Shown one piece after another: positions 25,751 to 58,366 of a DNA stretch of 59,758 nt. The first letter of the stretch is position 1. Every line of letters starts with the position of its first letter. The DNA lies in NCBI GenBank assembly GCA_964545665.1, contig CAZJGF010000001.1:1-59758 (forward strand). Reading direction: 5' to 3'. Under the pieces are notes generated by a model. The model worked only from the letters and a program-made list of their open reading frames with translations. It had not been told where the DNA came from and ran no database searches. Both the position numbers and the translations under genes were made by a program. This DNA comes from an uncultured Dehalococcoidales bacterium. GTDB lineage: Bacteria > Chloroflexota > Dehalococcoidia > GIF9 > AB-539-J10.

Positions 25751-25753
25751 GGT

Positions 25754-37002: not shown

Positions 37003-37018
37003 GTTTGATTACGAGCAG

Positions 37019-39697: not shown

Positions 39698-39749
39698 GGA
39701 CTTTGCAAGAGATATTAGCTGCGAGCACCAGGCTTCTCAGGTCAAATCT

Positions 39750-40673
39750 TCAGGGGCGGGGGCAAAGGCCGGCTGCGCTACAGATTCTTGGAATAGTCTC
39801 CTCTCGCTGAAGGGTCATGATGTGGATGCCCGCTACCCCTTCTACCTCTTTCAGTTGATTTATTGTGGCGATAGCGATTTTTGTCCCTTCCGTTGCCATT
39901 TCTTCTTTCGTGCGAGCCTTTAGGAGGCGTTCAATAATTTCATCTGGGACGTCAGTATTGGGGACTTTTGTCTTCATATACCTTGCTGCTGCTAGGGATG
40001 TTATGGGACTGATTCCAGCAAGGATTTTAACCTTCCTATCTAGTCCCTCTTCTTGAACAAGCTCCATCCATTTCTTAAATCTCTCAATGTTATAAACAGG
40101 CTGCGTCTGGACAAAATCTGCCCCGACAGCAACCTTATCCCTCAGGCGAATCACTTCGTCCTCTAGGGATTCGGCAAAGGGGTTTGCTCCTGCCCCAATG
40201 AAAAGTCGTGGCTCTCTTCCAGCTATTGGCTGTCCATTTTCAAACTCTTTCTCATCCCGGAGTCGTTTGACCATCCTGATAAACTGGATGGAATCGAGGT
40301 CGAAGACGGGCTTTGCCTCAGGACAATTTCCGAAAGAAACAGGATCCCCGGAGAGACAAAGTATGTTATTCACGCCAAACGCGGAGATGCCCAACACATC
40401 CATTTGGAGAGCAATTCGATTTCTGTCACGACAAGTCATTTGCGCTATGGGATCAAGACCCTCTTGTTTGCCTATAAGGCAGGCTGCCCAGCTTGCCATC
40501 GCTACCACCGCTGACTCTCCATCTGGGACATTAAAAGCATCAACATAGCCCTTAATCAGATTGAATTTTTCCCTTATCGCCTCGGTCTCCGTATTCTGAG
40601 GGGGACCAACTTGAGCAGTTACGGCAAAACATCCTGTTCCAAGTATCCTCTCCAGGTTGCTTTTCGTCTTCAT
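39750..40673 (-). CDS. metF: Methylenetetrahydrofolate reductase (acetogen-type MetF), stand-alone copy
   Basis: 307 aa with MTCRDRNRIALQ, LCLSGD, and FVQTQPVYN blocks. It is collinear with the second copy at 46759. Confidence 0.85.
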   Translation of the reverse strand: MKTKSNLERILGTGCFAVTAQVGPPQNTETEAIREKFNLIKGYVDAFNVPDGESAVVAMASWAACLIGKQEGLDPIAQMTCRDRNRIALQMDVLGISAFGVNNILCLSGDPVSFGNCPEAKPVFDLDSIQFIRMVKRLRDEKEFENGQPIAGREPRLFIGAGANPFAESLEDEVIRLRDKVAVGADFVQTQPVYNIERFKKWMELVQEEGLDRKVKILAGISPITSLAAARYMKTKVPNTDVPDEIIERLLKARTKEEMATEGTKIAIATINQLKEVEGVAGIHIMTLQREETIPRICSAAGLCPRP

Positions 40674-40763
40674 TTTGAACCCTGTAGCAAATATCTTATC
40701 ATGGTTTGCTGAAATTGATATACCTCGTTGCCAGCTTTCTGGAAACGATTAAACCACCAGTAT

Positions 40764-40792
40764 TTGCAGAAATCCTTAGAAGTACTTATAAT
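40764..40792 (+). promoter_or_regulatory. Candidate sigma-70-type promoter for the kinase/regulator/hdr unit
   Basis: TTGCAG (40764-40769), a 17-nt spacer, then TATAAT (40787-40792). The annotated GTG at 40806 has no SD, which implies a very short leader. An inverted repeat AGCAAA-n13-TTTGCT lies at 40686-40710 in the same divergent region. Confidence 0.4.
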
Positions 40793-40805
40793 GTAAACCC
40801 TTGAA

Positions 40806-41936
40806 GTGAAAGCAGTAACCGGGTTGGGCTCAGGCAAGGAAATACTAAAAGAATCAGACCTGTTCCGCGGTCTGAGCGACGATGAACTAGATAAGCTGCC
40901 ACCGCTTTGCCAGGAAGAAGTTTATGAGGCTGGGGTGGTTGTTTTCCTTGAAGGCGGCTGCTGCCATGCTATGTATATTGTGGAATCGGGCAAGGTGGCT
41001 CTGGAAATGAACCTTCATATTGGTCGGGTGGCAGAGGAAAGTGCGACGATTGACGTAATAACTAAAGGTGGCTGCTTGTGTTGCTCAGGGCTGATAGATC
41101 CTTGTATCCTTACTGCCACAGGCCGGACTCTTGAGACAACCAGGGTTGTTGTCTTAGATACGGCAGAGCTTATAGGCTTGCTCCAAGAGAACCCTGAAAT
41201 AGGATGTAAGGTGATGAATAACCTGGCCAAGATAGTTTCTTCAAGGCTTAAACACATTAGGGATACGATGGGACGTATTCTGTCCGTTATTTTCCACGAC
41301 CTAAAGGCTCCCTTGGCTGCGGTGGAAAGCTATAATCGGCTGTTGCTTGGTGAGTTCGCCGGAGAATTGAATGAGGAGCAAACGAACATAGTGAAAAGAA
41401 GTAGCAAGAGACTCTCTGATCTTCTAAATTTGGTGAGTAACATCATCGATTTTTCCCGAGTTGGTTTCGGGGACTTGAGGATGGAGAGAATTCCTGTGGG
41501 AAAAGTGATAGAAGATTGCATTGAAGCTATGCGCCCCTTAGCTGAGGAAAAGGGACTGCAACTGGTTGCTGAAGTATCTCCAGAACTCCCCGCTGTTCTC
41601 GGAGTTCAAGAGCGGCTTAAGCAGGTAGTTACCAACCTGTTGTCCAATGCCATTAAATTTACTCCTCACGGAGTAGTAACGGTTAAGGCGAGGGATGGTG
41701 CGGATGGCATACAGGTAGAGGTGGCGGATACCGGGATTGGTATTCCTGCCGAGGAATTGCCTAGGATATTTGATGGCTTCTATCGAGGTCTTGACATGGC
41801 TGAAAGGGGGGCTGGCCTAGGGCTTTCCATAACTAAGCAAATAGTTGAGGCCCACCGTGGTAGGATATGGGTGGTTAGCCCCTGTCCTGAAACCGGGAAG
41901 GGAAGCAAATTTGCCTTCACTTTGCCAAGGACTTGA
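40806..41936 (+). CDS. Cytoplasmic sensor histidine kinase with an N-terminal cNMP-binding-like domain
   Basis: H-box FHDLKAPL, N-box LLSNAIKFTP, G-boxes DTGIGI and GAGLGLS. The N-terminal ~150 aa have a cNMP-like fold pattern with a Cys-rich stretch (GGCLCCSGLIDPC). No TM segments are present. Confidence 0.8.
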   Translation: MKAVTGLGSGKEILKESDLFRGLSDDELDKLPPLCQEEVYEAGVVVFLEGGCCHAMYIVESGKVALEMNLHIGRVAEESATIDVITKGGCLCCSGLIDPCILTATGRTLETTRVVVLDTAELIGLLQENPEIGCKVMNNLAKIVSSRLKHIRDTMGRILSVIFHDLKAPLAAVESYNRLLLGEFAGELNEEQTNIVKRSSKRLSDLLNLVSNIIDFSRVGFGDLRMERIPVGKVIEDCIEAMRPLAEEKGLQLVAEVSPELPAVLGVQERLKQVVTNLLSNAIKFTPHGVVTVKARDGADGIQVEVADTGIGIPAEELPRIFDGFYRGLDMAERGAGLGLSITKQIVEAHRGRIWVVSPCPETGKGSKFAFTLPRT

Positions 41937-42000
41937 AAAGGTGAGGGAAAGGAGTGAGCGGATTAGGCGATTATTAGAACCAGTCGCCGGAGTAAGGTAG

Positions 42001-42423
42001 ATGGCTAAGATTCTGGTAGTAGATGATGACCCTGACATGCGGCTGGCAATTGGTAGCGTGCTAAAGTCGCGTTCCTATGAGATAGTTGAGGCTCGCGATG
42101 GAGAGGAGGCTCTAGCTAGGCTGAATGAAGAAAAGCCAGACTTAATGCTCCTAGACCTTCTGCTGCCAAAGATGGATGGTTTTGCTGTTGTCAAGGAGCT
42201 CAAGAACACCCAGGAGAGGTATCCCAGCGTACCTATACTAATCATAAGCTCGGTAAGGGAGGAAGCCAGTCACCGGCGCTATGAGCTAGAGGTAGGTCAT
42301 AAACTCAATATTGATGAGTATATTGAAAAACCCATTGAGCCGTTTATTCTACTGGAGCGTGTAGAGAGGCTTTTGTCTAAAGGAGGAAAAGATGCAAAAA
42401 CAAACCAAGATACTGGTCATTGA
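42001..42423 (+). CDS. Single-domain response regulator (CheY-like)
   Basis: ILVVDDD ... DLMLLDLLLPKMDG receiver motifs. 140 aa with no output domain. Confidence 0.85.
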   Translation: MAKILVVDDDPDMRLAIGSVLKSRSYEIVEARDGEEALARLNEEKPDLMLLDLLLPKMDGFAVVKELKNTQERYPSVPILIISSVREEASHRRYELEVGHKLNIDEYIEKPIEPFILLERVERLLSKGGKDAKTNQDTGH

Positions 42424-42799
42424 TGACGACCCCGATTTGCAGGCAGCAGTGAAGAAGGTGCTTGAAAGTAAGTCCTACGAAGTGGCTGCTGCGCTCAACG
42501 GAGACGAAGGTTTGCGGAAGGTAGTGGATGAAAGGCCCGATCTAATCATTCTAGACGTAGTGATGCCAGGTAAGAGTGGATTCGAGGTTTGCAAAGAACT
42601 CAAGACTGACCCAAAATATTACTTCTTCTCTCACATCCCTGTGCTGATGCTAACCGTTTATCCTGACGACAGAGAAAAGATGCACCTCTCTATGCGAGAG
42701 GGGATGACGATGGAGGCGGAAGACTACCTGCACAAGCCATTTGATCCTGACGAACTGCTAAACCGAGTGGAGGAATTGCTAGAAAAGAAAGAAAACTAG
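42392..42799 (+). CDS. Single-domain response regulator (CheY-like)
   Basis: ILVIDDD ... DLIILDVVMPGKSG ... KPF receiver motifs. 135 aa. It overlaps the preceding gene. Confidence 0.85.
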   Translation: MQKQTKILVIDDDPDLQAAVKKVLESKSYEVAAALNGDEGLRKVVDERPDLIILDVVMPGKSGFEVCKELKTDPKYYFFSHIPVLMLTVYPDDREKMHLSMREGMTMEAEDYLHKPFDPDELLNRVEELLEKKEN

Positions 42800-42802
42800 A
42801 TA

Positions 42803-44044
42803 GTGAATAAGTCAGTTGCAGTTATTGGCGGCGGCATAAGCGGAATAACTTCAGCATTAGAATTAGCCAATAGCGGCTTTAGAGTATACTTAATAGAGAG
42901 AGAAGCAGCAATTGGAGGGCAAGCTGCTTCTTTTTGTTGCAAGGCAACAGAGATCTGCACAAAGTGCTCAGTCTGCTTAATACCCCAAAAACTCAATAAG
43001 GTCGCAGTTCATTCCAAAATCTCGATCCTGACTGATTCGACAGTGGCAGGCTTAAGCGGCAAAGCCGGATATTTTGAGGTCGAAGTGCTTCGAAAACCTC
43101 AATATATTGCTCCAGAGAGATGTGTTGCTTGTGGAATATGTGCCCGAGTCTGTCCTACTGAACCTAAGGCAATCCGTTCTCCTTCCCCGGATGCAATCCC
43201 TTATTGTTATGTCATCGATGAAAGTCGATGTCTTCGCCTTAGAGGTGAAAAGTGCAACCTCTGTCGGGGAACGTGTCCCACAAACGGCATAGATTTTGAC
43301 CGGGAGCCAGAAAGGAAGGAGCTAAGCGTCAGTGCTATCATCGTTGCTACCGGATTCGAGGTTTTCAATGCTCGAGAAATGGGCTCCTTGGGCTATAGTA
43401 GATATCCTAACGTTCTGACTGGCCTTGACCTTGAGAGGATGTTCAATCGGTGGGGCTTTCTTAGACTTCCCTCCAATGGGAAAGAGCCTCGAAAAGTCGC
43501 CTTCATCCAGTGTGTAGGCTCAAGGGATGAAACTCGTGGCTATTGTTCCCAGGTATGCTGCAAGTATGCCATGAGGTTTGCTCGGCTTATCAAATATCAA
43601 AACCCAAATACTGAGGTGACCATCTTTTATATTGACCTTCAGACTGCTGGAAAGGGCTTTGCCGAGTTTTATGAAGAGTGTCGAGGGAATATTCAATTTA
43701 TTCGAGGAGTGCCAGTGGAAATTCTGGAGACCTCCGGGGAACTCGAGGTAAGGTTTGAGAATATTCTAGAAGGGAAGGTTGAACGAGAAACCTTTGACCT
43801 TGTAACCCTTTCGGTGGGCATCACCCCCAGGAAAGACTCCTGGAATCTGGCGAGAGTCTTGGGAATAAATTTGGGAGACCATGGCTTCTTCGATACCAAG
43901 GAGCCGTTTAATTCCATAGAGACGAATGTTGAGGGGATTTTCCTTGCCGGAACTTGTCAGGGTCCTAAAGACATCCCTGATTCTATTGCTCATGGAGTGG
44001 CTGCGGCAGAGGGAGCAATGGGGGTTCTAGAGAAATGCAAGTAA
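42803..44044 (+). CDS. hdrA: HdrA-like flavoprotein (first half of a split tandem HdrA)
   Basis: VAVIGGGISGITSALELA FAD motif, ferredoxin motifs CVACGICARVCP / CNLCRGTCP, and the HdrA signature FIQCVGSRDE..YCSQVCC. The usual LDKTFPT.DCS.C block is replaced by SFCCKATEICTKCSVC. Confidence 0.8.
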   Translation: MNKSVAVIGGGISGITSALELANSGFRVYLIEREAAIGGQAASFCCKATEICTKCSVCLIPQKLNKVAVHSKISILTDSTVAGLSGKAGYFEVEVLRKPQYIAPERCVACGICARVCPTEPKAIRSPSPDAIPYCYVIDESRCLRLRGEKCNLCRGTCPTNGIDFDREPERKELSVSAIIVATGFEVFNAREMGSLGYSRYPNVLTGLDLERMFNRWGFLRLPSNGKEPRKVAFIQCVGSRDETRGYCSQVCCKYAMRFARLIKYQNPNTEVTIFYIDLQTAGKGFAEFYEECRGNIQFIRGVPVEILETSGELEVRFENILEGKVERETFDLVTLSVGITPRKDSWNLARVLGINLGDHGFFDTKEPFNSIETNVEGIFLAGTCQGPKDIPDSIAHGVAAAEGAMGVLEKCK

Positions 44045-45699
44045 AGATGGGCATCTTCCTATGCGATTGCGGGGGGAGTCTAAAGAACATAGATTTTCCC
44101 AAAATTAGCGGAGATTTAGAGAAACTTGAAGACGTTGCCTTTATAGACATAAGCCATAGCTTGTGCCTTGAAGAAGGAGAGAAGGCGATAACTTCCAGAA
44201 TCCTGAGTGAGAACATAAATAGAGTAGTAATCGCTGCTTGCTCACCGGAGTTACGTGAGCACAAATTTGTCAGACTTCTAGAAGGGCTTAGATTTAACCC
44301 CAGTCTTCTTTCCTTGGCAAACATCAGGGAACAATGTTCTTGGACTCGTGAAGGCGATGTCACTGAGAAGGCGACGGAACTTATAAGAATGGCTATGGGT
44401 AAAGCTCGGTTGCTTCAGCCTGTGGAAAGAGAGAGCGTTTCAGTAAACAAAGAAGTACTAGTGCTGGGCGGAGGATTCTCTGGGATGAAATCGGCTCTTG
44501 AGCTTTCCCGGCTTGGAATCAGGACAACCATAGTGGAAGGGAAGTCAACCTTGGGGGGCAAGCTTAAGGAGGTTGAGGGCTTCTACGGACTTAAAACAAG
44601 CCCGAAACAGATGCTTGACTCGATGATAACGGCGATAGAGAAAGATAATAATATCGAGGTTCTAACCTCTGCTGAAGTTACAAGGGTGCGAGGGGAGGTG
44701 GGGGATTTTGACATAACAATAAGAGGAGGGAGAAAAGAATTCTCCCTGAGCTTTGGCGCTATCATCTTTGCCACCGGATATAGAACTGAAATTTTGCCGC
44801 AAGACTTTGAGCTTAAACCCGGAGGTAATATCATCTCACAGCTAGACCTTGTTGAGATGCTGCGAGCTCCAGAGAAGTTGAAACGAAGACCTGAGACTAT
44901 AGGCTTTATTCTCGATGTCTGTGATGAGAATTCACGCCTCCCTACCCTCTCCAGTCTCAACAATGCCTTGGCGGTTAGAGAGAAACTAGGAAGTGAAGTC
45001 TACGTGTTCTGTAAGAATCTGAAGGTAGATAGTGAAGGGGCGGAGGAGCTTTACCGAGAGGCGCGCAATCGCGGAGTAGTGTTTTTGAAATTTGACGAAC
45101 CACCACAGATATACTGTGAGGATGGCCGAGTGGCCATCGAGGCAAAGGATGTTCTTTTGGGTGAAGAGGTGGTGCTCCCCTGTGACCTCTTGGTGGCTGA
45201 GGAAAGAGCTTTGCCCCCAGAAGGAACCAAAGGCTTAAGCTCTATGCTAAATATAGGGACCGACTTCCAAGGCTTCTATCAGGATGAAAATGTGCATCTT
45301 TATTCAGCGGCATCAGCTAGGAAAGGGATGTTTTTTGTCGGAGGCTGCCGCGGGAATCTGGATCTCCGTCGAGCTTTGACCGATATTGCATCTGCGGTGA
45401 TGGGCAGCTATTCGCTTTTGGCTCTGGGGGAGGCAGTGGTCGAGGTGGAGAAAGTAAGGGTCGACCCGGAAAAGTGTCGGGCGTGCCTGACCTGCATCCG
45501 TGTATGTCCCCACGGTGCAGTTCAGTTAGTTCGGTTGGATACTGAGAAGGAGGTAGCTCAGATTTACGATCTGGCTTGTGATGGATGTGGCATCTGCTCT
45601 GCCTTATGTCCGGCAAAGGCAATAGATTTTAAAGGCTATGCCGATGAACAAATCCTTGCTGAAGTTGAAGCAATGGGAGAAACTAATGAACGTAGATAA
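44035..45699 (+). CDS. HdrA-like protein (second half of a split tandem HdrA)
   Basis: It starts with the HdrA-type MGIFLCDCGG domain, then a second Rossmann motif VLVLGGGFSGMKSALELS, and ends with 2x[4Fe-4S] (CRACLTCIRVCPHG, CDGCGICSALCPAKA). It is collinear with residues ~917-1480 of the protein at 48169 but lacks a CVGSR/YCS.VCC block. ATG 44047 is an alternative start. Confidence 0.75.
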   Translation: MQVKMGIFLCDCGGSLKNIDFPKISGDLEKLEDVAFIDISHSLCLEEGEKAITSRILSENINRVVIAACSPELREHKFVRLLEGLRFNPSLLSLANIREQCSWTREGDVTEKATELIRMAMGKARLLQPVERESVSVNKEVLVLGGGFSGMKSALELSRLGIRTTIVEGKSTLGGKLKEVEGFYGLKTSPKQMLDSMITAIEKDNNIEVLTSAEVTRVRGEVGDFDITIRGGRKEFSLSFGAIIFATGYRTEILPQDFELKPGGNIISQLDLVEMLRAPEKLKRRPETIGFILDVCDENSRLPTLSSLNNALAVREKLGSEVYVFCKNLKVDSEGAEELYREARNRGVVFLKFDEPPQIYCEDGRVAIEAKDVLLGEEVVLPCDLLVAEERALPPEGTKGLSSMLNIGTDFQGFYQDENVHLYSAASARKGMFFVGGCRGNLDLRRALTDIASAVMGSYSLLALGEAVVEVEKVRVDPEKCRACLTCIRVCPHGAVQLVRLDTEKEVAQIYDLACDGCGICSALCPAKAIDFKGYADEQILAEVEAMGETNERR

Positions 45700-46075
45700 T
45701 AACAAGATTGTTGCTTTTTGCTGTGCGAACTCAGCTTATCAGGCAGCGGACAAGGCGGGAAAGATGAGGCTTTGTTATCCAGATAATGTCAGGATCATTC
45801 GAGTCCCTTGTGCTGGAAGGGTGGATGTTGTTCATATTCTTAAAGCCTTTGAGAAAGGCGCCGCTGGGGTACTGGTGATGGGTTGTCAGGAGGGTGCCTG
45901 CCAGCATCTTACAGGCAACACTCGAGCGAAGGAAAGGCTAAAGTATGCCGGCGATTTGCTCAAAGAAGTAGGAATAGATAGAGAGCGAGTTAAAATGGTC
46001 AATCTTGCCCCAGACATGGCTCAAAAGTTCATCTGTGAGATTGAGGTGATGATGGAGAAGATAAAGGAGGCGTGA
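45686..46075 (+). CDS. mvhD: MvhD/FlpD-like [2Fe-2S] electron-transfer protein (copy 1)
   Basis: KIVAFCCANSAYQAAD ... IIRVPCAGRV ... GVLVMGCQEGACQH, the typical MvhD Cys pattern. ATG 45686 is preferred to the upstream track start, which overlaps hdrA. Confidence 0.85.
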   Translation: MNVDNNKIVAFCCANSAYQAADKAGKMRLCYPDNVRIIRVPCAGRVDVVHILKAFEKGAAGVLVMGCQEGACQHLTGNTRAKERLKYAGDLLKEVGIDRERVKMVNLAPDMAQKFICEIEVMMEKIKEA

Positions 46076-46078
46076 GGA

Positions 46079-46741
46079 ATGATAATTGCTGAAAGGAAGC
46101 CTTTCGAGGAAATCAAGAACATGATTGTTGGTTATAAGAGAATCCTGGTGGTAGGGTGCAGGACTTGTGTCACTATCTGCTGGGCTGGTGGGGAAAAGGA
46201 GGTGGGAATACTTTCCTCCCAACTGAGGCTCCAATCGAGCAGGAACGGAGATGAGCTTTCTATTTTGGAAGCCACTGTCGAAAGGCAGTGTGAAAAGGAG
46301 ATGGTGACCCAGGAACTTGGAGATAAGGTACAGGATATAGAGGCGATTCTCTCTATGGGCTGTGGAGTCGGGGTGCAGACCATAGCCGAGATATATGAAG
46401 AAAAGCCTGTTTTCCCGGCACTTAATACTACATTTGTAGGGATGCCTGAAAAGGAAGGGCTATGGATTGAGACGTGCGGAGCGTGCGGGGATTGCTTTTT
46501 GGACAGAACAGGGGGAATCTGCCCAGTTGTGCGCTGCGCCAAGGGGCTGCTCAATGGGCCTTGTGGCGGCACAAGAAGGGGTGGGAAGTGCGAGATAGAT
46601 CCAGAGAAAGACTGTGCGTGGGTTCTTATTTACCGAAGGCTGGAAAAGCAAGGCAGGCTTGACCTAATGAGGAAATACTACGAGGCTAAGAACTATAGGA
46701 AAGTGAAAAGACCTGGGAAAATCGAAGCCTTGGAAGCTTGA
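46079..46741 (+). CDS. metV: MetV (MTHFR C-terminal-domain protein, Cys-rich partner of acetogen MetF)
   Basis: CGACGDCFLDRTGGICPVVRCAKGLLNGPCGGTRRGGKCE...CAW is the characteristic MTHFR_C block. It lies directly upstream of metF. Confidence 0.8.
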   Translation: MIIAERKPFEEIKNMIVGYKRILVVGCRTCVTICWAGGEKEVGILSSQLRLQSSRNGDELSILEATVERQCEKEMVTQELGDKVQDIEAILSMGCGVGVQTIAEIYEEKPVFPALNTTFVGMPEKEGLWIETCGACGDCFLDRTGGICPVVRCAKGLLNGPCGGTRRGGKCEIDPEKDCAWVLIYRRLEKQGRLDLMRKYYEAKNYRKVKRPGKIEALEA

Positions 46742-46758
46742 ATCATAGGGGGTGGAAA

Positions 46759-47649
46759 ATGGCAAAGCCCTTTAGGGAAACGCTAAAAAAGAAGGATTTC
46801 ATTGTAACCGCCGAGGCGGGTCCAGTGAAAGGCTCCAATGTGACAAATATGATCGAGCATATTGAACTTCTTAAAGACAAGGTGGATGGCCTAAATGTAA
46901 CTGATAATCAAAGTGCTGTCATGAGGTATCCCTCGCTTGGGACTTGCCTTCTCGTCAAAGAGCATGGCGGAGAGCCAATTCTCCAAATCACATGCAGGGA
47001 CCGTAATCGCCTGGCAATTCAGGCAGATCTTCTTTTTGCTTACTCCAGAGGAATAGATAATGTCCTCTGTCTTACCGGCGATTCTGTGGATGTTGGTGAC
47101 CATAAGGAGGCAAAACCAGTTTTCGATCTCGACTCGGTCCAGCTGATTCATTTGGTTCATAGTTTGAATTCTGGAAAAGATATGGTGGGGAATGAACTCG
47201 ATGGGGGTGTTGATTACTGTATCGGTGCCTCTGCCACCCCTTCGGCAGATCCAATCGAACCTCAGCTTATTAAATTTGATAAGAAGCTAGATGCCGGGGT
47301 GGACTTTGTTCAAACCCAGGCTGTCTATGATCTGGATGAACTCAAAAGATTTATGGAACATACCCGTAGGATGGACGGAAAGGTCAAAATTCTGGCTGGC
47401 ATAGTGCTTCTTGTCGGGGCGAGAATGGCGATGTGGATGAATGACAATGTTCCTGGCATATTTGTTCCTCAGCACTTCATTGATGAGATGGCTGAGGCTC
47501 CAAAGGGCAAAGGAGTTTCTAGGGGGATAGAGATTGCTGGAAGGCTCGTACGACAGATAAAAAAGGAGAAAATCTGTGATGGGGTTCATATCATGGCTAT
47601 TGGAAGAGAGGAGAGGGTTCCTGACATTCTAGAGGCGGCCGGAATATGA
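46759..47649 (+). CDS. metF: Methylenetetrahydrofolate reductase (acetogen-type MetF), MetV-linked copy
   Basis: ITCRDRNRLAIQ, LCLTGD and FVQTQAVYD blocks. ATG 46759 follows GGGGGTGGA. Confidence 0.85.
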   Translation: MAKPFRETLKKKDFIVTAEAGPVKGSNVTNMIEHIELLKDKVDGLNVTDNQSAVMRYPSLGTCLLVKEHGGEPILQITCRDRNRLAIQADLLFAYSRGIDNVLCLTGDSVDVGDHKEAKPVFDLDSVQLIHLVHSLNSGKDMVGNELDGGVDYCIGASATPSADPIEPQLIKFDKKLDAGVDFVQTQAVYDLDELKRFMEHTRRMDGKVKILAGIVLLVGARMAMWMNDNVPGIFVPQHFIDEMAEAPKGKGVSRGIEIAGRLVRQIKKEKICDGVHIMAIGREERVPDILEAAGI

Positions 47650-47676
47650 GAATTCAAAACTTGGGAAGGTAAGAAA

Positions 47677-48156
47677 ATGACTGTAGCGCTAAATGAGTTG
47701 GATTCCAAATTTAAATATGATGTGGCTGAAGAGCCCGGAGGAGAAAACATTAAGCTTTGTTTTGCCTGTGGTCTCTGCACCGCAAGCTGCCCAGTTGCGG
47801 ATATTGATCCGGAGTATAACCCTCGAAAGATAATTCATATGGTTCTCTTAGGGATGAGGGAGGCAGTGCTTTCTTCTAACTTTCCCTGGCTTTGCACTCA
47901 GTGCTATACATGTCAGGCTCACTGTCCTCAAAATGTAAACTTCTCTGATGTAATGAAGGCATTGAGGAGTATGGCGGTTAAGGAAGGATATGTCCATCCT
48001 TCCTTTGCCGATCAAATAAAGGAGATTGACACCTTCTCGCAAAAGCTACGTCATCAAATGGTGCTATCCATCGTGGCTAGGAAATCCGAAGAACTAAAGG
48101 CGGACGTAGAGAAACTTGCTAAGGAAGCACTGGAGAAGGCGAGAAAAGAAGTCTAG
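47677..48156 (+). CDS. hdrC: HdrC-like 2x[4Fe-4S] protein
   Basis: CFACGLCTASCPV ... CTQCYTCQAHCPQ, with the helical spacer typical of HdrC. 159 aa. Confidence 0.75.
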   Translation: MTVALNELDSKFKYDVAEEPGGENIKLCFACGLCTASCPVADIDPEYNPRKIIHMVLLGMREAVLSSNFPWLCTQCYTCQAHCPQNVNFSDVMKALRSMAVKEGYVHPSFADQIKEIDTFSQKLRHQMVLSIVARKSEELKADVEKLAKEALEKARKEV

Positions 48157-48168
48157 AGGGCCAAAGCT

Positions 48169-51100
48169 ATGGAATCTAAGAACAGCCTCGTAGGAGCGGC
48201 GCTAGTAGTTGGCGGAGGAATTGGAGGGATGCAGGCTGCGCTTGACCTTGCCGAGTCTGGGTATCACGTCTATTTGGTGGAGAAATCCCCGGCTATCGGT
48301 GGGGCAATGGCTCAGCTGGATAAGACCTTTCCCACCTTAGATTGTTCCATGTGTATTCTCTCTCCCAAACTCATTGAATGTGGAAGGCATCCCAACATAG
48401 AATTGCTTTCCTGCTCAGAACTTGTTGAAGTCAACGGGGAGCCGGGGGATTTCAAAGCCAAGGTCTTAAAGCATCCGAGGTATGTTGATGTTGCCAGGTG
48501 CACCGGGTGCGCTGAGTGTGCTGAAGTCTGTCCGGTAGAGCTTCCCAACGAGTTCGAACAGGATTTAGCTTCGAGGAAGGCCATATTCAGGCCATTCGCC
48601 CAAGCCTTTCCCAATGCCTTTGCCATCGAGAAGAGGGAGAGACCGCCATGCACTTTGACTTGTCCAGCAGGGATAAACATTCAAGGATACGTGGCTTTGA
48701 TCGCCAAGAGGAAATATAGAGAAGCGCTATCCCTGATCAGGGAGTGGGTTCCTATCCCAGGAGTACTGGGTAGGATTTGCCCTGCTCCCTGCGAGGAGAA
48801 ATGCAACCGCAAGCTCTTAGAAGAGCCTGTAGCAATTCGAGTCCTGAAGAGATTTGCCGCCGATATGGTTGAAGATGAATTGTCACCTCCCGAGATAGAG
48901 GAGAAAGAGGAAAGGGTTGCTATCATCGGCTCAGGGCCAGCAGGGCTTACCTGCGCCCATTACCTTCGTCGCGAAGGATATCAGGTTACTGTCTTTGAAG
49001 CCCTCCCTGTGGTTGGAGGAATGCTTTATGTAGGCATCCCTGAGTACCGTTTGCCTAAGAACGTTGTTGAGAAGGAGATTGAGAGTATCAAACGCCTGGG
49101 GATAGAGATAAAGACCAATACCCCTATTGGTGCAGAAATTGGCATTAAAGACCTTCTTGAACAAGGATATGAAGCCGTATTTATCAGTGTTGGAGCGCAT
49201 CGTAGTCAGCGACTTGGCGTTCCAGGCGAAAATGCAGAAAGGGTGATTCACGGTGTCGATTTCTTGAGAGATATTAATTTGGGGAAGGAAGTGAAGACGA
49301 AAGGGAAAGTAGTGATAATAGGAGGTGGAGACGTTGCCATAGATTCAGCCCGCTCTGTTCTTCGCTTGGGTGCCGATGAAGTCGTAGTCCTTTACAGGAG
49401 GACGAGAGTTGAAATGCCTGCCAGGGAGGAAGAGGTTAAAGCTGCCGAAGAGGAAGGGGTGAAGATAGAATATTTGGTCGCTCCTGTGGAGATCCTCTGC
49501 GAAAATGGTAAGGTTACCGGAGTAAAGTGTACTCGTATGCAGCTTGGGGAGCCCGACGTCACCGGGAGGAAGCGTCCTATACCCATACCGGGTTCCGAGT
49601 TTGACCTTAAGGTTGATATGGTAATTCCGGCAATCGGGCAGACGCCTGACCTCTCCTTTGTAGAAAACAGCGGGATAAACATCTCCAGCAGGGGCACTAT
49701 CCAAGTTGACCCAATGACTTTGGAAACAGGCTGTGAAGGAGTCTTTTCTGGAGGGGATTGCCAGACTGGGCCCTCTATTGCAGTTGAAGCTGTAGCCGCT
49801 GGTGCGCGGGCAGCAGAATCCATCATCAGATATATTAACCATCAAGACCTCAAAGAGGGAAGGACTGTAGAGAGGAAGCTCTCCGGTGTTTCTTTTATTC
49901 CTTTCGGTATGGCCAGGGAGTCAAGACAGAAGATGCCAACCATCCCTGTTGAGGAGAGGAAGGTAAGCTTTAAGGAGATAGAGCTTGGCTTCCCTGAAGA
50001 TATGGCCATTAGGGAGGCAAGTCGCTGCCTTGCCTGCGGAATTTGTTCTGAGTGTATGCAATGCGTCGCAGCTTGCAAAGCTAATGCTATTGATCACAAC
50101 ATGAGAGAAGAGATTGTACAACTGAATGTGGGCTCTGTGGTACTCTGTCCTGGATTTGATGAATTCGACCCTGGCCCTCTCTTCAATTACGGATACAGGA
50201 GATATTCCAACGTGGTAACTAGCATAGAATTTGAGAGGATGCTCTCGGCATCGGGGCCATATCAAGGAGAGCTCAAGAGGCCTTCAGATGGGAGGCCGCC
50301 TCAAAGGATAGCCTGGATTCAATGCGTTGGCTCAAGAGATGAAAGCCTAAATCGAGGATATTGCTCTTCTGTGTGCTGCACCTACGCTGTGAAACAAGCT
50401 ATTATCGCCAAGGAACATGTCCCTCTTGAACTGGAAGAGACTATCTTCTTCATGGATATACGAACTCAAGGGAAGGACTTTGATAAGTTCTACAGGCGGG
50501 GAGAGGAAGAGGGAATAGAATTTATGAGGGCTAGGGTCTATAGGATTGAGGAATCAGATGGCACCGGTAGTTTACTTCTCAAGTATGTAGGCGAGGATGA
50601 TAAGCCAAGCACTCGTGAGTTTGACCTGGTTGTCCTATCTGTAGGCCTTCAGCCTTCCTCGACAGCGATAGAACTAGCCAAGAAGCTTGGCATCCAGCTC
50701 AATAAATATGGATTTTGTCACACGAATACATTTTCTCCAGTGGAGACTTCGAGGCCGGGAATCTTTGCCGCTGGCGCCTTTCAAGGCCCGAAGGATATTC
50801 CTGAGACTGTGATGCAGGCAAGCGGAGCAGCGGGAAGCGTTTCCGCTTTGCTTGCTCCGGCACGGAATACCCTGATCAAGAAGAAGCAATATCCGCCGGA
50901 AAGAGACGTCTCTGGGGAAGAACCCAGGATTGGTGTTTTCATATGCCACTGTGGCATCAATATTGGGGGAGTGGTCAATGTGCCTGACGTCACTGACTAC
51001 GCTAAGACACTTCCTGGCGTAGTTTATGCTGAAGACAACCTCTACACTTGCTCTCAGGACACTCAGGAAAGAATAAAAGCAATGGCAAAGGAACATGGTC

Positions 51101-52611
51101 TAAATCGGGTGGTGGTAGCATCGTGCACCCCTCGGACACATGAGCCTTTGTTCCAGGAGACTATCAGAGAAGCCGGCTTGAATAAATACCTTTTTGAGTT
51201 TGCCAATATCCGTGACCAATGCTCCTGGGTTCACATGCATGAGCCAGAGAAGGCTACTGAGAAGGCGAAGGATTTGCTAGGAATGGCAGTGGCAAAGGTA
51301 AGGCTGAAAAAACCACTTAAGCCTCTGTCTCTCCCAGTTAATCACTCTGCTTTGGTTATTGGGGGAGGAATAGCAGGGATGGTAAGTGCCTTAAACTTGG
51401 CAGAGCAAGGTTTCGAAGTCCATCTTATTGAGAGGAGCAGCGAGCTCGGTGGTATGGCAAGGAAAATACATCATACTATTGATAATGGAGATGTTCAGAC
51501 TTTTCTCGGCGATTTAATTAAGAAGGTTAAGGAACATACTAAGGTTAGGGTCTATTACAATACTTGGATTGTAGATGCCTATGGATATGTGGGTCACTTC
51601 ACCACCGAGATAATGAGATATCGAGGCAGGGTAGTAGAGAAGATAGAGCATGGCGCGACTATCATTGCCACCGGGGCCCAGGAGTATAAGCCGAACGGTG
51701 AGTACCTCTATGGAAGAGACCCAAGGGTGCTTACCCAACTTGAACTTGAAGATGAGATAGCCAGAGAGAGTCCGGACATTATCAACTGCGATAACGTAGT
51801 GATGATTCAGTGTGTGGGCTCTCGCAATGGTCAACGACCTTATTGCAGCCGGGTGTGCTGCAATCAAGCAATTAAGAATGCTCTAAAGCTTAAGGAAATA
51901 AGGCCTGAAATGAACATTTACATCCTCTATCGGGATATGAGGACGTATGGATTCTATGAGGAACATTACCGGGAGGCAAGACAACAAGGGGTTGTCTTCC
52001 TCCGCTATGAGCCAGAAGATAAGCCTCGGGTGAGTCAAGAGAGAAAGAGTGGCCAGCTTTTGATAAGGGTTGAGAGCAAGGATCCGGTGCTGGGGGAGAA
52101 AGTAGCTATTGATGCTGATATTCTTGCCCTATCTGTGCCCATGGTTCCCCCGGAGGAAGCAAGAGAGCTTGCAATGCTCTACAAGGTGCCTTTAAACGAG
52201 GATGGCTTCTTCCTAGAGGCACATGTAAAGCTTCGTCCGGTGGATTTCGCCACCGATGGGATCTTTGTCTGCGGGCTTGCCCATGCCCCTAAGTCGATAG
52301 AGGAAAGCATCGCTCAGGCTAAAGCAGCCGCCTCTCGAGCAACCACTATATTAGCCAAGGATACCGTTACGGCTGAGGGCATTGTTGCCTCCGTAAACGA
52401 AAATATTTGCTCAGGTTGTGGCATTTGTGAGGCTCTCTGCCCTTATGGGGCTATCACTATTGATAGGGATAAGAATGTAGCCAAAGTTAACGAAGCTTTG
52501 TGTAAGGGTTGTGGCACTTGCTGTGCCGCTTGCCCTTCAGGAGCTGCCCAACAAAGGAGTTTTACCTCGGAGCAGATTTCAGCCATGCTGGATGCTATTT
52601 TGGAGGTTTAG
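48169..52611 (+). CDS. Giant HdrA-GltD-HdrA fusion flavoprotein (HdrL-like)
   Basis: 1480-aa uninterrupted ORF. Order of parts: HdrA N-part (VVGGGIGGMQAALDLA, LDKTFPTLDCSMC, CTGCAECAEVCP); GltD-like insert at ~48640-49860 (CPAGINIQGY, ICPAPCEEKCNR, IIGSGPAGLTCAHYL, GGMLYVGIPEYRLP, IIGGGDVAIDSAR, GVFSGGDCQTGP); rest of HdrA (CLACGICSECMQC, WIQCVGSRDE..YCSSVCC); the IGVFICHCG domain; a second HdrA unit (VIGGGIAGMVSALNLA, MIQCVGSRNG..YCSRVCC); and a terminal CSGCGICEALCP / CKGCGTCCAACP. Confidence 0.9.
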   Translation: MESKNSLVGAALVVGGGIGGMQAALDLAESGYHVYLVEKSPAIGGAMAQLDKTFPTLDCSMCILSPKLIECGRHPNIELLSCSELVEVNGEPGDFKAKVLKHPRYVDVARCTGCAECAEVCPVELPNEFEQDLASRKAIFRPFAQAFPNAFAIEKRERPPCTLTCPAGINIQGYVALIAKRKYREALSLIREWVPIPGVLGRICPAPCEEKCNRKLLEEPVAIRVLKRFAADMVEDELSPPEIEEKEERVAIIGSGPAGLTCAHYLRREGYQVTVFEALPVVGGMLYVGIPEYRLPKNVVEKEIESIKRLGIEIKTNTPIGAEIGIKDLLEQGYEAVFISVGAHRSQRLGVPGENAERVIHGVDFLRDINLGKEVKTKGKVVIIGGGDVAIDSARSVLRLGADEVVVLYRRTRVEMPAREEEVKAAEEEGVKIEYLVAPVEILCENGKVTGVKCTRMQLGEPDVTGRKRPIPIPGSEFDLKVDMVIPAIGQTPDLSFVENSGINISSRGTIQVDPMTLETGCEGVFSGGDCQTGPSIAVEAVAAGARAAESIIRYINHQDLKEGRTVERKLSGVSFIPFGMARESRQKMPTIPVEERKVSFKEIELGFPEDMAIREASRCLACGICSECMQCVAACKANAIDHNMREEIVQLNVGSVVLCPGFDEFDPGPLFNYGYRRYSNVVTSIEFERMLSASGPYQGELKRPSDGRPPQRIAWIQCVGSRDESLNRGYCSSVCCTYAVKQAIIAKEHVPLELEETIFFMDIRTQGKDFDKFYRRGEEEGIEFMRARVYRIEESDGTGSLLLKYVGEDDKPSTREFDLVVLSVGLQPSSTAIELAKKLGIQLNKYGFCHTNTFSPVETSRPGIFAAGAFQGPKDIPETVMQASGAAGSVSALLAPARNTLIKKKQYPPERDVSGEEPRIGVFICHCGINIGGVVNVPDVTDYAKTLPGVVYAEDNLYTCSQDTQERIKAMAKEHGLNRVVVASCTPRTHEPLFQETIREAGLNKYLFEFANIRDQCSWVHMHEPEKATEKAKDLLGMAVAKVRLKKPLKPLSLPVNHSALVIGGGIAGMVSALNLAEQGFEVHLIERSSELGGMARKIHHTIDNGDVQTFLGDLIKKVKEHTKVRVYYNTWIVDAYGYVGHFTTEIMRYRGRVVEKIEHGATIIATGAQEYKPNGEYLYGRDPRVLTQLELEDEIARESPDIINCDNVVMIQCVGSRNGQRPYCSRVCCNQAIKNALKLKEIRPEMNIYILYRDMRTYGFYEEHYREARQQGVVFLRYEPEDKPRVSQERKSGQLLIRVESKDPVLGEKVAIDADILALSVPMVPPEEARELAMLYKVPLNEDGFFLEAHVKLRPVDFATDGIFVCGLAHAPKSIEESIAQAKAAASRATTILAKDTVTAEGIVASVNENICSGCGICEALCPYGAITIDRDKNVAKVNEALCKGCGTCCAACPSGAAQQRSFTSEQISAMLDAILEV

Positions 52612-52612
52612 A

Positions 52613-53032
52613 ATGGCCAAGAATGAATTTGAGCCGAAAATACTAGGTTTCTGTTGTAACTGGTGTTCGTATGCTGGTGCTGACCTTGCTGGTGTCTCGC
52701 GGTTCCAATATCCCCCCAATATAAGGATAATAAGGGTGATGTGCTCCGGCCGGGTAAGCCCTGCTTTTGTTCTGAAGGCATTAGCGGTTGGATTCGATGG
52801 TGTGCTCATCGCTGGCTGCCATCCAGGGGATTGCCATTATATATCCGGCAACTATAAAACGAGAAGAAGGGCGGAATTCACAAAAAGGCTTTTGGAGCAG
52901 TTTGGAATGGAACCAGAAAGACTGAGATTGGAGTGGATCTCAGCATCTGAGGGAATGAAATTTGCTGAGGTGGTGAGAGACTTCACCAACAAAATAAAGG
53001 AGTTAGGACCAAATTCACTGAAAAGGAGCTGA
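52613..53032 (+). CDS. mvhD: MvhD/FlpD-like protein (copy 2)
   Basis: KILGFCCNWCSYAGAD ... IIRVMCSGRV ... GVLIAGCHPGDCHY. ATG 52613 lies 2 nt after the stop of the giant gene and 7 nt after GGAGG. Confidence 0.85.
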   Translation: MAKNEFEPKILGFCCNWCSYAGADLAGVSRFQYPPNIRIIRVMCSGRVSPAFVLKALAVGFDGVLIAGCHPGDCHYISGNYKTRRRAEFTKRLLEQFGMEPERLRLEWISASEGMKFAEVVRDFTNKIKELGPNSLKRS

Positions 53033-53036
53033 GCAG

Positions 53037-53689
53037 ATGGCAAGAAGATGGAAAATAGAACTAGCCTTTTATTGGGCAGCCACCTGTGGAGGCTGTGATG
53101 TGGCAACTTTGGACATTGGAGAGAAAATCCTCGATGTGGTGGACATTGCCGATATTGTCCTTTGGCCTGTGGCGATGGACTTCAAGTACAGAGACGTAGA
53201 GAAGATGGAGCCAAAAAGCATAGATCTGTGTTTGTGTAACGGCGCGGTAAGAAGTCCGGAGCATGAGGAAATAGCCAAGATGCTAAGGGAAAAACCAAAG
53301 GTGATGGTAGCATTTGGAAGTTGCGCCTGCTTCGCGGGATACCGGGGCTTGGGAATGTAGCAAATAAAGAGCAAATATTTGATGTGGCATACCAAGAGAC
53401 ACCTTCCACAGTGAACCCAGATTCTATTGTGCCCAAGACAGAATGTGAAGTGGCGGGAGAGATTTTGACACTTCCTGAGTTGTACGACACGGTGAAGACA
53501 CTGGATCAAACAGTGGATGTTGATTATTACGTGCTTGGTTGGCCCCCGGTTGTAGACGGTATAAACGACGCTGTGGGAATAATCGCCAAGTACGCAGAAA
53601 CCGGGGAGCTGCCTCCAAAGGGAACAGTTGTCGCTTTCGACAAGACTGTATGTGATGAGTGTCCACCCAGCTTCACTTCTGTGCCTTAG
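53037..53689 (+). pseudogene. mvhG: [NiFe]-hydrogenase small subunit (MvhG-like): frameshifted, mutated and 3'-truncated
   Basis: Frame 0 reads ATCGGCDVATLD ... AFGSCACFAG and then stops. The expected continuation GIPGLGNVAN... is in the -1 frame from the GGG run at 53336-53338. The conserved PGCPP is LGWPP (TGG at 53540-53542). The ORF ends soon after VCDECP, so the C-terminal cluster-binding part is missing. Confidence 0.7.
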
Positions 53690-54807
53690 GAGCCCCGGAC
53701 TTTATTGTAGGCCCAAGAGCTGAAGCAGCGAAGAGAAACATAATCGGAGTAGTAGAAAAAGCAGGCACGGAATTGGGGCTGGCGGTGATACATGCTAGGG
53801 GATATGCACAGAGAATACAGGAGATAGTGGGAGGAAAGGCAACACATCCAGTATGTGGCCTGCCCGGGGGTATGTCAAAGGCTCTCTCGAATGAGGAGAG
53901 GGATGAGATAGAGGGTGAGGCCAAGAAGCTAGTTGATTTTGGCAAGAAAAGCCTTGAGATATTTGATGACCTTGTGTTGAAGAACAAAGAATATGTGGAT
54001 TTGATCACAGGTGATACTTATTACCATGAGACGTATTACATGGGCATGGTAGATGAAAATGAGAAAGTAAATTTCTATGAAGGAAAAATAAAGGTGGTGG
54101 ATCCGGATGGAAAGGAATATGCTAGATTTGATGCCAAGGACTACTTGGACTATATAAGCGAAGCAGTGGAGCCTTGGTCGTACCTAAAGTTTCCTTATCT
54201 AAAAGGGGTTGGATGGAAAGGGCTCGTAGATGGGAAGGAGAGTGGCATTTATAGACTGAATTCACTGGCAAGGCTGAATGTTGCCAGTGGCATGGCTACT
54301 CCTAGAGCACAAGAAGCATACACGAGAATGTATGACTTCTTCGGTAAAAAGCCAGTCCATAGCACCCTTGCGTTCCACTGGGCCCGCCTCATAGAGAATC
54401 TATATGCTGCTGAGAGATGCTTGGAGCTCATTCAAGACCCGGAGACAAGTTCTCAAGATATAAGAGGCGACTTAGGAGAGCCTGGCGAGGGGCTAGGTTG
54501 CGTAGAAGCTCCTCGTGTTACACTCTTCCATCACTACTGGGCAGATGAAAAAGGAATAACCAAGAAAGTTAACCTAATAGTCGCCACAGCTCAGAATAAC
54601 GGCCCGATGTGTATGTCAATTAAGAGAGCGGCGCAGAGCTTAATAAAGAATTGGAAAGTAGAAGAAGGCTTACTAAATATGGTAGAAATGGCTTTTAGGG
54701 CTTACGATCCTTGCCTTGCATGCGCAACTCATACGCTTCTAGGACAGGTGCCCCTAAAAATCGTCATAGTTGGCCCAGACAGAAAGGAGTTGCAAAGGCT
54801 AGGTTGA
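53659..54807 (+). pseudogene. mvhA: [NiFe]-hydrogenase large subunit (MvhA-like), 5'-truncated
   Basis: It reads from LHFCALGAPDFIVG to the C-terminal Ni-ligand motif DPCLACATH. The first ~110 aa, including the N-terminal R.CG.C Ni-binding motif, are absent. The frame is closed immediately upstream by TGA TGA (53653-53658). Confidence 0.7.
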
Positions 54808-54940
54808 AGCATCCCATACGACAACTGGCTGACGGCTGACAGCTTAGAGATGGAGACTCTGGTTTCTAGACTGGTGCAAAATTGGACAAAGTGGTATTCT
54901 GTATTGTCACCTGCTCTAATACTCTTGCCAGAGTAGCAGA

Positions 54941-57864: not shown

Positions 57865-57876
57865 CTAAGGCTGTAG

Positions 57877-58326: not shown

Positions 58327-58366
58327 CTTTTATCACCTCCTTTCTATTTTTCTTAAGTTCTCTCGG

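Follow-up and report, generated by a model that had tools for sequence, protein, structure and literature searches.

A gene cluster of Dehalococcoidia that may encode an Hdr-type methylene-tetrahydrofolate reductase without HdrB

A 59.8-kilobase (kb) stretch of a contig from an uncultured Dehalococcoidales bacterium (GenBank CAZJGF010000001.1, assembly GCA_964545665.1; the whole stretch is termed the window) contains, on the plus strand at positions 42803 to 53032, a cluster of metF, metV, hdr and mvhD genes. With a probability of roughly 50%, this cluster encodes a methylene-tetrahydrofolate reductase (MTHFR) of the Hdr or Moorella type that is built without HdrB. Judging from its predicted proteins, the enzyme would be linked to NAD(P)H and ferredoxin, independent of HdrB and probably bifurcating. 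The Hdr-type (type IV) MTHFRs of Moorella thermoacetica and Sporomusa ovata were defined with an HdrB subunit (Mock et al. 2014; Kremp et al. 2022, PMC9430772). Gene content was determined from a listing of open reading frames (ORFs) and Pfam scans, with NCBIfam scans being used for the surroundings. The intact genes of the cluster are as follows (lengths in amino acids, aa).

42803-44044, plus strand: HdrA1, HdrA-like (Pyr_redox_2/FAD and Fer4), 413 aa; thioredoxin reductase (TrxR)-like FAD domain with an inserted ferredoxin domain, lacking the N-terminal domain as well as the ferredoxin domain at the C-terminus
44035-45699, plus strand: HdrA2, HdrA-like, 554 aa; N-terminal domain (FLCDCG), degenerate TrxR-like domain and C-terminal 2x[4Fe-4S] ferredoxin domain, lacking the inserted ferredoxin domain
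45686-46075 (ORF from 45638), plus strand: MvhD1, [2Fe-2S] protein of the FlpD family (PF02662, E 2.8e-44); start picked from orthologs
46079-46741, plus strand: MetV, 220 aa with 13 Cys (PF12225, E 2.7e-35)
46759-47649 (ORF from 46738), plus strand: MetF, catalytic subunit of MTHFR, 296 aa (PF02219, E 1.4e-38); a 296-aa product is also called on identical contigs
47677-48156, plus strand: stand-alone HdrC-like 2x[4Fe-4S] protein, 159 aa (Fer4_8/Fer4_17; HdrC matches in the PDB)
48169-52611, plus strand: HdrL, HdrA/GltD/HdrA fusion, 1480 aa (Pfam Fer4_20 and Pyr_redox_2; PDB alignments)
52613-53032 (ORF from 52511), plus strand: MvhD2 (PF02662, E 1.6e-58); start 1 nucleotide (nt) past the HdrL stop

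Intergenic spacing from hdrA1 to mvhD2 ranged from -14 to +27 nt, with 17 nt between metV and metF and 12 nt between hdrC and hdrL. The adjacent MetF and MetV and the presence of MvhD, here in two copies, are features of a Moorella-type set. Ratios of nonsynonymous to synonymous substitution (dN/dS) were calculated against locus L011, an independently assembled relative with ~94% protein identity, and were 0.12 to 0.45 for the intact cluster genes (HdrL, 0.20; HdrC, 0.30). With the exception of HdrB, no subunit is missing; the genes are intact and closely packed and show purifying selection.

Absence of HdrB from the cluster and related loci

Neither a CCG tripeptide nor a C..CC..CxxC pattern was present in the six-frame stop-free segments of at least 60 aa from the window, while the same regular expression detected both CCG motifs of Escherichia coli GlpC. 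When GlpC was used as a tblastn query, only its HdrC-like N-terminus matched the window; the match fell on the HdrC-like gene, with a weak one on a ferredoxin motif near 24039. For the part of GlpC with the CCG motifs (residues ~165-396), the window gave no significant match. Phmmer searches with the HdrB half of P0142, the nearest HdrC-HdrB fusion, and with the CCG half of GlpC were run against the full set of 4015 six-frame segments (50 aa or longer) from the window and 42 fetched loci, and at E<=10 the sole return was the positive control, locus L041. For the relatives, up to 10 kb on either side of the cluster was covered (~416 kb of loci), and no CCG domain was detected within 10 kb of the cluster on related contigs, the positive controls being detected. 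The two-CCG-domain HdrB of the Moorella-type enzyme was, hence, missing from the window and from within 10 kb in related loci, as was, from the window and the loci, the HdrB active site for the heterodisulfide of coenzymes M and B (CoM-S-S-CoB) that characterizes the MvhAGD-HdrABC complex. As HdrB is not encoded in or near the cluster in any related locus recovered, a heterodisulfide-type site is unlikely as a built-in part of the complex.

A preliminary description of this DNA had reported a Moorella-type MetFV-Hdr-MvhD set that keeps an HdrC-like protein at 47677-48156 but has no CCG-domain HdrB among its proteins. The gene set was borne out by the Pfam matches of MetF, MetV and MvhD and by the architecture of HdrL, and the lack of HdrB by the regular expression, tblastn and phmmer searches of the window and related loci; HdrC was kept without HdrB in every related locus recovered as well. 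The further claim, that a complex devoid of HdrB cannot use a heterodisulfide-type co-substrate, holds in so far as no HdrB lies in or near the cluster and a built-in site is improbable.

The HdrC-like protein

The HdrC-like protein contains two CxxCxxCxxxCP motifs (Cys28-38 and Cys73-83), and its best PDB matches were the HdrC chains of Mvh/Vhu-Hdr complexes (E 2.1e-22 to 3e-16, over residues ~7-115). The NCBIfam HdrC model TIGR03290 gave 91.8 bits against a cut-off of 160, and every other NCBIfam HdrC cut-off was also missed; the qmoC model gave 74.5 bits (residues 10-114) against a cut-off of 300. The protein resembles the HdrC-like N-terminus of QmoC and GlpC, and its 159 aa compare with 183 to 191 aa in the solved HdrC chains. 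On the sequence evidence, it is a homolog of HdrC and a putative HdrC subunit. Relatives numbered 806 at E<=1e-5, and the best 120 were 75 to 95% identical; among these 120, those with an organism name were proteins from metagenome-assembled genomes of Dehalococcoidia. Residues 1-135 are highly conserved and the C-terminal tail is less so. An AlphaFold2 prediction from a 40-sequence alignment (all at least 75% identical) had a mean predicted local distance difference test (pLDDT) score of 58.7 and a predicted template modelling score of 0.33.

Fusions of HdrC with MetF or MetV, which would have lent direct support to an HdrC-MetV contact, were not found among the 150 best representatives at 50% identity. 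The long matches in this set consisted of a response-regulator/GcvH fusion, histidine-kinase fusions, a DUF3786 fusion, a tandem HdrC and one HdrC-HdrB fusion. In the 445-aa representative P0126, a response-regulator receiver is joined to a lipoyl carrier domain (glycine-cleavage H) and to an HdrC-like domain with 59% identity to that of the window.

Conservation of the cluster in Dehalococcoidia

Window proteins were mapped by tblastn onto 38 loci, comprising metagenome contigs that carry the HdrC-like protein or close homologs (some being duplicates of each other) and 25 genome loci. The latter came from a scan of GTDB species genomes and were nearly all titled Dehalococcoidia or Dehalococcoidales; two titles (Deltaproteobacteria and Poribacteria) look like binning noise. 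In these genome loci and metagenome contigs, the order histidine kinase-response regulator-HdrA1-HdrA2-MvhD-MetV-MetF-HdrC-HdrL-MvhD was kept wherever the contig reached, with identities of about 50 to 95% per protein. Even on a distant contig, L042 (51 to 54% identity), MetF, HdrC and HdrL are adjacent with nothing between them.

A different arrangement was found in L041, where HdrC is fused to a two-CCG HdrB directly before HdrL (HdrL being 62% and the HdrC part 47% identical to their window counterparts). This fusion, set against loci of the window type, indicates that HdrB-bearing and HdrB-less forms both exist. HdrB beside or fused to HdrC has been reported for the Anaerolineae bacterium DscP3 (PMC5736913), a Hakuba actinobacterium (PMC7325909) and Moorella and Sporomusa (PMC9430772). 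In enzymes of this type that include HdrB, as in these organisms and L041, hdrB adjoins or is fused with hdrC.

Paralogous stand-alone HdrC-like genes (48% identity) were present in L043 (10001-15098) and L044 (3095-5442), in each case between hycI and an FrhB/FdhB-like gene that is followed by a 1009-aa double HdrA and MvhD, with neither MetFV nor a CCG domain. A separate HdrL-MvhD-MvhG-MvhA-HycI block lies upstream of this unit. From the layout of these two loci, HdrC-like proteins appear to serve, without HdrB, as adaptors between HdrA-type flavoproteins and varied terminal modules.

Anatomy of the HdrA-type proteins and role of the GltD module

The HdrA-type proteins were aligned residue by residue to solved HdrA chains (8rvv_A and 5odc_A) and searched for motifs. 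HdrA1 aligns to 8rvv_A 143-556 and 5odc_A 146-562 (E about 1e-95) and keeps GGGISG (residue 9), KCSVC (the Cys194/Cys197 motif), LDLER (E211, equivalent to E356) and CVGSRD...CSQVCC. HdrA2 aligns to 5odc_A 5-235 and 406-649 (E 9e-71). The losses in the two proteins are complementary, one having Cys197 and the inserted ferredoxin domain without the N-terminal domain and the other the reverse; heterodimeric HdrA pairs with complementary domain loss were described by Chadwick et al. 2022 (PMC9012536). A single gene interrupted by a selenocysteine codon was ruled out, as the two ORFs overlap by 10 nt in differing frames and every relative likewise has two ORFs.

Alignment of HdrL to 5odc_A placed residues 9-156 on 144-291, 626-843 on 293-511, 917-1083 on 2-168 and 1289-1475 on 461-647. 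A GltD/NfnB-like FAD/NAD(P)H module (residues ~157-625) sits between HdrA positions 291 and 293, inside the inserted ferredoxin domain, and NfnB, GltD and dihydropyrimidine dehydrogenase chains align to residues 157-560. The N-half has HdrA1-like features with E689/K742, and the C-half (917-1480) has an HdrA2-like layout that lacks the inserted ferredoxin domain but keeps the Fe-S cluster motif and E1194/K1236. The two halves show the same complementary losses as HdrA1 and HdrA2, and by its domain layout HdrL is a fused version of such a pair.

By published description, the HdrA of M. thermoacetica has 1487 aa, with a ferredoxin domain, a TrxR-like domain interrupted by GltD and then a second HdrA unit; its E/K residues are E696/K750 and E1204/K1246, it oxidises NADH and it lies beside HdrB (PMC9430772). 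HdrL compares with this description in having a GltD-interrupted TrxR domain and a second unit without an inserted ferredoxin domain. Since the Moorella HdrA shares this architecture and coexists with HdrB (PMC9430772), the GltD module is the usual site of NAD(P)H entry in enzymes of this type and does not compensate for a lost HdrB. The preliminary description had offered this module as a possible replacement partner for HdrB, and this part of its interpretation was not upheld, while the Moorella-type set and the HdrC without HdrB were. The interval that it gave, 42803-53032, captured the gene content but missed the mvhG and mvhA remnants downstream and the fact that the upstream HdrA ORFs form a split complementary pair.

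The position of the GltD module is filled differently in one sub-lineage, represented by L017 (3894-9966), L018 (10493-16566) and L019 (10493-16563), where separate genes for NuoE-like (153 aa) and NuoF-like (645 aa) proteins take the place of the insert in HdrL. HdrL is split in these loci into a 141-aa head and a 1089-aa body with an extra N-terminal 2Fe-2S/4Fe-4S extension. As another pyridine-nucleotide module fills the same position, these loci support NAD(P)H as a substrate.

A further HdrA N-half with a GltD/NfnB-like insert (938 aa) is encoded at 54941-57757 on the minus strand, downstream of a gene for Mrp/Mnh subunit B (57877-58326). It is 50% identical to HdrL 10-906 and has no adjacent C-half partner; its ortholog in L022 is followed by a C-half HdrA, MvhD, MvhG and MvhA.

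Decay of the hydrogenase genes

Remnants of two [NiFe] hydrogenase genes follow mvhD2.

53037-53689, plus strand: mvhG remnant, small subunit, frameshifted and truncated at the 3' end (tblastn; Oxidored_q6 on the first piece)
53659-54807, plus strand: mvhA remnant, large subunit, lacking the first ~102 codons (tblastn; NiFeSe_Hases on the C-terminal part only)

With the intact 327-aa MvhG of L008 as tblastn query, residues 3-102 matched at 53052-53351 and residues 81-206 in another frame at 53285-53665; residues 207-327 were absent. Only residues 103-483 of the 488-aa L008 MvhA were matched, and the missing region holds the N-terminal RICGVCPGAHH (RxCGxC nickel-site) motif of L008. The window thus does not contain the intact MvhA and MvhG of an MvhAGD-HdrABC complex. 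The same frameshift and MvhG206/MvhA103 deletion junction, plus further deletions, were found in L011 (15379-16747). Because this independent assembly shares the junctions, an assembly error was ruled out and the lesions represent inherited gene decay.

In relatives, mvhG and mvhA follow or face the cluster (L008/L009, L023, L024 and L029; on the opposite strand in L007 and L022), match the Pfam families of [NiFe] small and large subunits and are full length wherever the contig allows, being intact in L008, L023 and L007. For the remnants, dN/dS against L011 was 1.08 for mvhG, on only 99 codons, and 0.17 for mvhA, on 195 codons. As these values do not settle their status, the remnants were called pseudogenes from the frameshift and deletions common to the window and L011. 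The dN/dS of the intact cluster genes suggests that these remain functional without the hydrogenase.

Genes surrounding the cluster

The cluster is headed by a two-component system.

40806-41936, plus strand: sensor histidine kinase with a domain binding cyclic nucleotide monophosphate (cNMP_binding, HisKA and HATPase_c in the L011 ortholog, 95% identical)
42001-42423, plus strand: receiver-only response regulator (Response_reg in orthologs; syntenic in many loci)
42392-42799, plus strand: second receiver-only response regulator (Response_reg in orthologs; syntenic)

The upstream position of the histidine kinase was kept in most loci that reach that far. A promoter and terminator scan of 39500-58500 gave counts equal to those of shuffled sequences, with the best sigma-70-like match at 40763-40792, and is thus uninformative on the structure of the operon; Rfam and tRNA scans of the window returned no matches.

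Most of the window from ~15.5 kb on is a Wood-Ljungdahl superlocus, the first ~15 kb consisting of tripartite ATP-independent periplasmic (TRAP) transporter and hydroxyacid/sugar-acid genes. In that upstream region, pairs of short-chain dehydrogenase/reductase and NAD-dependent epimerase/dehydratase genes are duplicated in opposite order (4970-6846 and 12894-14622, plus strand), and two proteins of the C_GCAxxG_C_C family are encoded (4255-4830 and 12347-12892). The superlocus contains the following.

15550-17058, plus strand: MttB-superfamily methyltransferase, 502 aa, uninterrupted ORF (328 bits against a trimethylamine model cut-off of 525)
17705-18499: CooC-like ATPase
18480-20291: Fhs
21061-21945: AcsE, bacterial-type methyltransferase
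21952-28472, plus strand: archaeal Cdh-type carbon monoxide dehydrogenase/acetyl-CoA synthase, adjoining AcsE: CdhD, CdhA (1062 bits), CdhB epsilon, CdhC and gamma
28476-30930: NuoE/NuoF-like pair
33452-33907: NuoE, flanking the NuoF-GltD fusion
33910-37002, plus strand: NuoF-GltD fusion, 1030 aa
37019-39697: FdhA, NuoG-like/formate dehydrogenase alpha subunit
39750-40673, minus strand: second MetF, 307 aa, without MetV; similar to the MTHFR portion of YitJ-type bifunctional proteins (NF006396, E 2e-65)

The MttB-superfamily protein may, judging from its sequence, be one of the members without pyrrolysine and supply the pathway with methyl groups, and the set at 33452-39697 looks like a pyridine-nucleotide-linked, possibly bifurcating, formate dehydrogenase. 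The second metF lies just upstream of the cluster in many relatives, with two copies in L018 and L019.

Proposed reaction and alternative explanations

Gene context and the homology of the proteins to those of the solved Mvh-Hdr complexes lead us to infer the following course of electrons. NAD(P)H would enter or leave at the NfnB/GltD-like module in HdrL, and an HdrA-type flavin with the conserved E/K signature would split the electron pair. The high-potential electron would pass from the [4Fe-4S] cluster of the TrxR domain through the two HdrC clusters and the MetV clusters to the MetF flavin and on to methylene-tetrahydrofolate (methylene-THF), the domain donating to HdrC being part either of HdrL (by analogy with hdrC-hdrB-hdrA of Moorella) or of HdrA1. 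The high-potential acceptor would be methylene-THF (E0' about -200 mV), in the position held by HdrB and the heterodisulfide in methanogens. The low-potential electron would go to ferredoxin (Fd), most plausibly via the uninterrupted inserted ferredoxin domain of HdrA1, since that of HdrL is occupied by the NfnB-like insert. The predicted reaction is

2 NAD(P)H + CH2-THF + Fd(ox) <-> 2 NAD(P)+ + CH3-THF + Fd(red)

which would be near equilibrium and reversible and would fit acetogenesis or the oxidation of methyl groups or acetyl-CoA. H2 via MvhAG-MvhD would be an added input in relatives with intact mvhGA and would have been lost in the lineage of the window. In a broader form, which we put forward tentatively and hold to be somewhat short of an even chance, Dehalococcoidia would possess an HdrB-free Hdr-type MTHFR in which HdrC passes electrons directly to MetV-MetF, methylene-THF is the sole high-potential acceptor of flavin-based bifurcation and the inputs (NfnB-like insert, NuoEF-like genes and Mvh hydrogenase) are interchangeable between lineages.

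Several points weigh against an HdrB-free bifurcating enzyme. All members of the complex are known here from genes alone, and the contact between HdrC and MetV is purely one that we infer, the structure model of HdrC being unusable at its low pLDDT. The other adverse points are those on which the alternatives draw. A CCG protein of the HdrB or HdrD type encoded elsewhere might join in trans, making this an ordinary MetFV-HdrABC-MvhD enzyme with scattered genes. Such scattering is known: type I Acetothermia carry hdrBC with mvhAG elsewhere in the genome, away from metVF-hdrA-mvhD (PMC9586279), and HdrABC and MetFVD are frequently not co-localised (Poudel et al.); our reading, moreover, was confined to 59.8 kb of the genome and, in relatives, to no more than 10 kb on either side. 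Here, however, hdrC is in the cluster, and hdrB lies beside or is fused with hdrC in every HdrB-containing example seen, so that a split of the two would have to be upheld across every related locus recovered. The HdrC-like protein also falls below all NCBIfam HdrC cut-offs, and its similarity to the solved chains fades past about residue 115. We regard an HdrB in trans as unlikely.

The cluster could also encode two enzymes in one operon, an MTHFR of HdrA1/HdrA2-MvhD-MetVF (with or without HdrC) and an NAD(P)H/H2/ferredoxin oxidoreductase of HdrL-MvhD (with or without MvhAG). In L043, HdrL-MvhD-MvhGA and the unit with the HdrC-like paralog look like separate units; the HdrL-MvhD-MvhG-MvhA-HycI block of L043 and L044 has no MetFV, while their HdrC-like paralog goes with an FrhB-like protein, double HdrA and MvhD. 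In the cluster itself, MvhD is encoded twice, and the HdrA-type proteins make up two complete pseudo-dimeric units. In Moorella, however, the GltD-bearing HdrA goes with HdrCB-MvhD-MetVF and no extra HdrA pair (PMC9430772). The proximity of hdrC to hdrL, which it directly precedes also in L041 and L042, and the purifying selection on HdrL after the loss of mvhGA likewise speak for a single enzyme, and a division into two would not restore HdrB anyway. To this alternative we assign a similarly small share of the probability.

The least probable of the alternatives is a linear, non-bifurcating MTHFR dependent on NAD(P)H (on H2 in relatives) in which HdrL, HdrC and MetV act as a wire, as in RnfC2-MetVF of Acetobacterium. 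Bifurcation or a second acceptor has not been demonstrated in the Moorella and Sporomusa complexes despite purification attempts, and HdrA homologs occur in non-bifurcating complexes (PMC9430772). In the cluster, the equivalent of K409 in HdrA1 is Arg (R258), and HdrA2 lacks the Cys194/197 motif, the CSxVCC cluster motif and the equivalents of E356 and K409. Both TrxR-like domains of HdrL, on the other hand, retain the E and K of the bifurcating-flavin signature, two inserted ferredoxin domains are kept and the NfnB-like module comes from a bifurcating family; three flavins and more than 10 Fe-S clusters also seem excessive for an exergonic linear step. A linear enzyme is, accordingly, considered improbable, and the HdrB-free Hdr-type MTHFR is the reading that we prefer.

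Comparison with known systems

The MetFV-HdrABC-MvhD enzymes of Moorella and Sporomusa share with the cluster MetF, MetV, MvhD, an HdrC (here an HdrC-like protein), an HdrA of ~1480 aa with E/K at nearly the same positions and a Wood-Ljungdahl context. The window differs in the absence of HdrB and its CCG domains, the extra split HdrA1/HdrA2 and the second MvhD, and in gene order (metVF-hdrC-hdrL-mvhD against hdrCBA-mvhD-metVF of Moorella). The window and its relatives also differ from Moorella in the attached MvhGA genes, intact in some relatives and decayed here, and in the upstream two-component system. HdrB of the Hdr-type MTHFR is without a known substrate, tests with glutathione and lipoate having failed in S. 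ovata (PMC9430772).

Among Chloroflexi, the marine Anaerolineae DscP3 and An-B22 carry hdrA-hdrBC(fused)-mvhD-metVF, and no other known clade of the phylum was reported to have metV (Sewell et al. 2017, PMC5736913). These bacteria and L041 share with the window the phylum, the type of habitat and the MetVF/MvhD/HdrA theme, but their HdrC is fused to a two-CCG HdrB, whereas the HdrC-like protein of the window ends at 159 aa, with hdrL following directly. MetVF-HdrA-MvhD without HdrBC is known from type I Acetothermia (PMC9586279) and Ca. Syntrophoarchaeum (PMC9012536). These have MetFV, HdrA and MvhD with no adjacent HdrB, as in the window; HdrC is also missing from those clusters, however, whereas the window keeps HdrC alone and has Mvh genes attached. 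A cluster of Dehalococcoidia with HdrC and without HdrB was not found described in the literature searched, subscription papers lying outside that search. While MetFV-HdrA-MvhD without HdrBC is already known, the HdrC-only form of Dehalococcoidia appears to be new.

The methanogen MvhAGD-HdrABC complex (5ODC and 8RVU) has homologous HdrA, HdrC and MvhD (E 1e-19 to 1e-216), and the logic of its HdrA dimer is reproduced in the window by complementary half-units. It is set apart by HdrB and the CoM-S-S-CoB chemistry; in the window, an NfnB-like module is inserted, the hydrogenase genes are pseudogenes and the terminal module is likely to be MetVF. HdrL of Desulfobacterium autotrophicum (PMC2702500) and the HdrA/NfnB fusions HdrA9-11 of anaerobic methanotrophs of the ANME-1 group (PMC9012536) are, by description, alike in being large fusions of HdrA and glutamate-synthase-type domains that are followed by mvhD and for which a link to NAD(P)H has been proposed. 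Their loci are accompanied by dsr or other genes, whereas MetFV and HdrC accompany the fusion of the window.

A combination of two HdrA-like flavoproteins with an HdrC-like Fe-S module and no HdrB also occurs in QmoABC of sulfate reducers, where QmoC carries a membrane haem-b domain. The HdrC-like protein of the window differs from QmoC in being short (159 aa) and soluble, with no hydrophobic span and a qmoC score far under the cut-off; neither the membrane cytochrome-b domain of QmoC nor apr or sat genes were found nearby.

Implications for the Hdr-type enzymes and for Dehalococcoidia

The methylene-THF/methyl-THF step in acetogens and reverse-acetogenic oxidisers is a long-standing question of Wood-Ljungdahl bioenergetics, and the options are narrowed by a widespread version with HdrC and without HdrB: if the enzyme is active, the HdrB site would be dispensable for electron flow from HdrA to MetVF. 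On the broader, tentative reading given above, HdrB would be an accessory of the Moorella enzyme, outside the core path, and the HdrB-less form would offer a simpler system for showing whether this class of enzyme bifurcates to ferredoxin. Decay of the hydrogenase in the window lineage and, in a sister lineage, the exchange of the module for NAD(P)H point to an input side that evolves while the HdrC-MetVF side stays fixed. The cluster thus provides a natural HdrB-less comparator for the Hdr-type enzyme together with a documented case of modular turnover on the electron-input side. It is carried by Dehalococcoidia of marine and subsurface settings, and the energy gained at this step would thus bear on their lifestyle.

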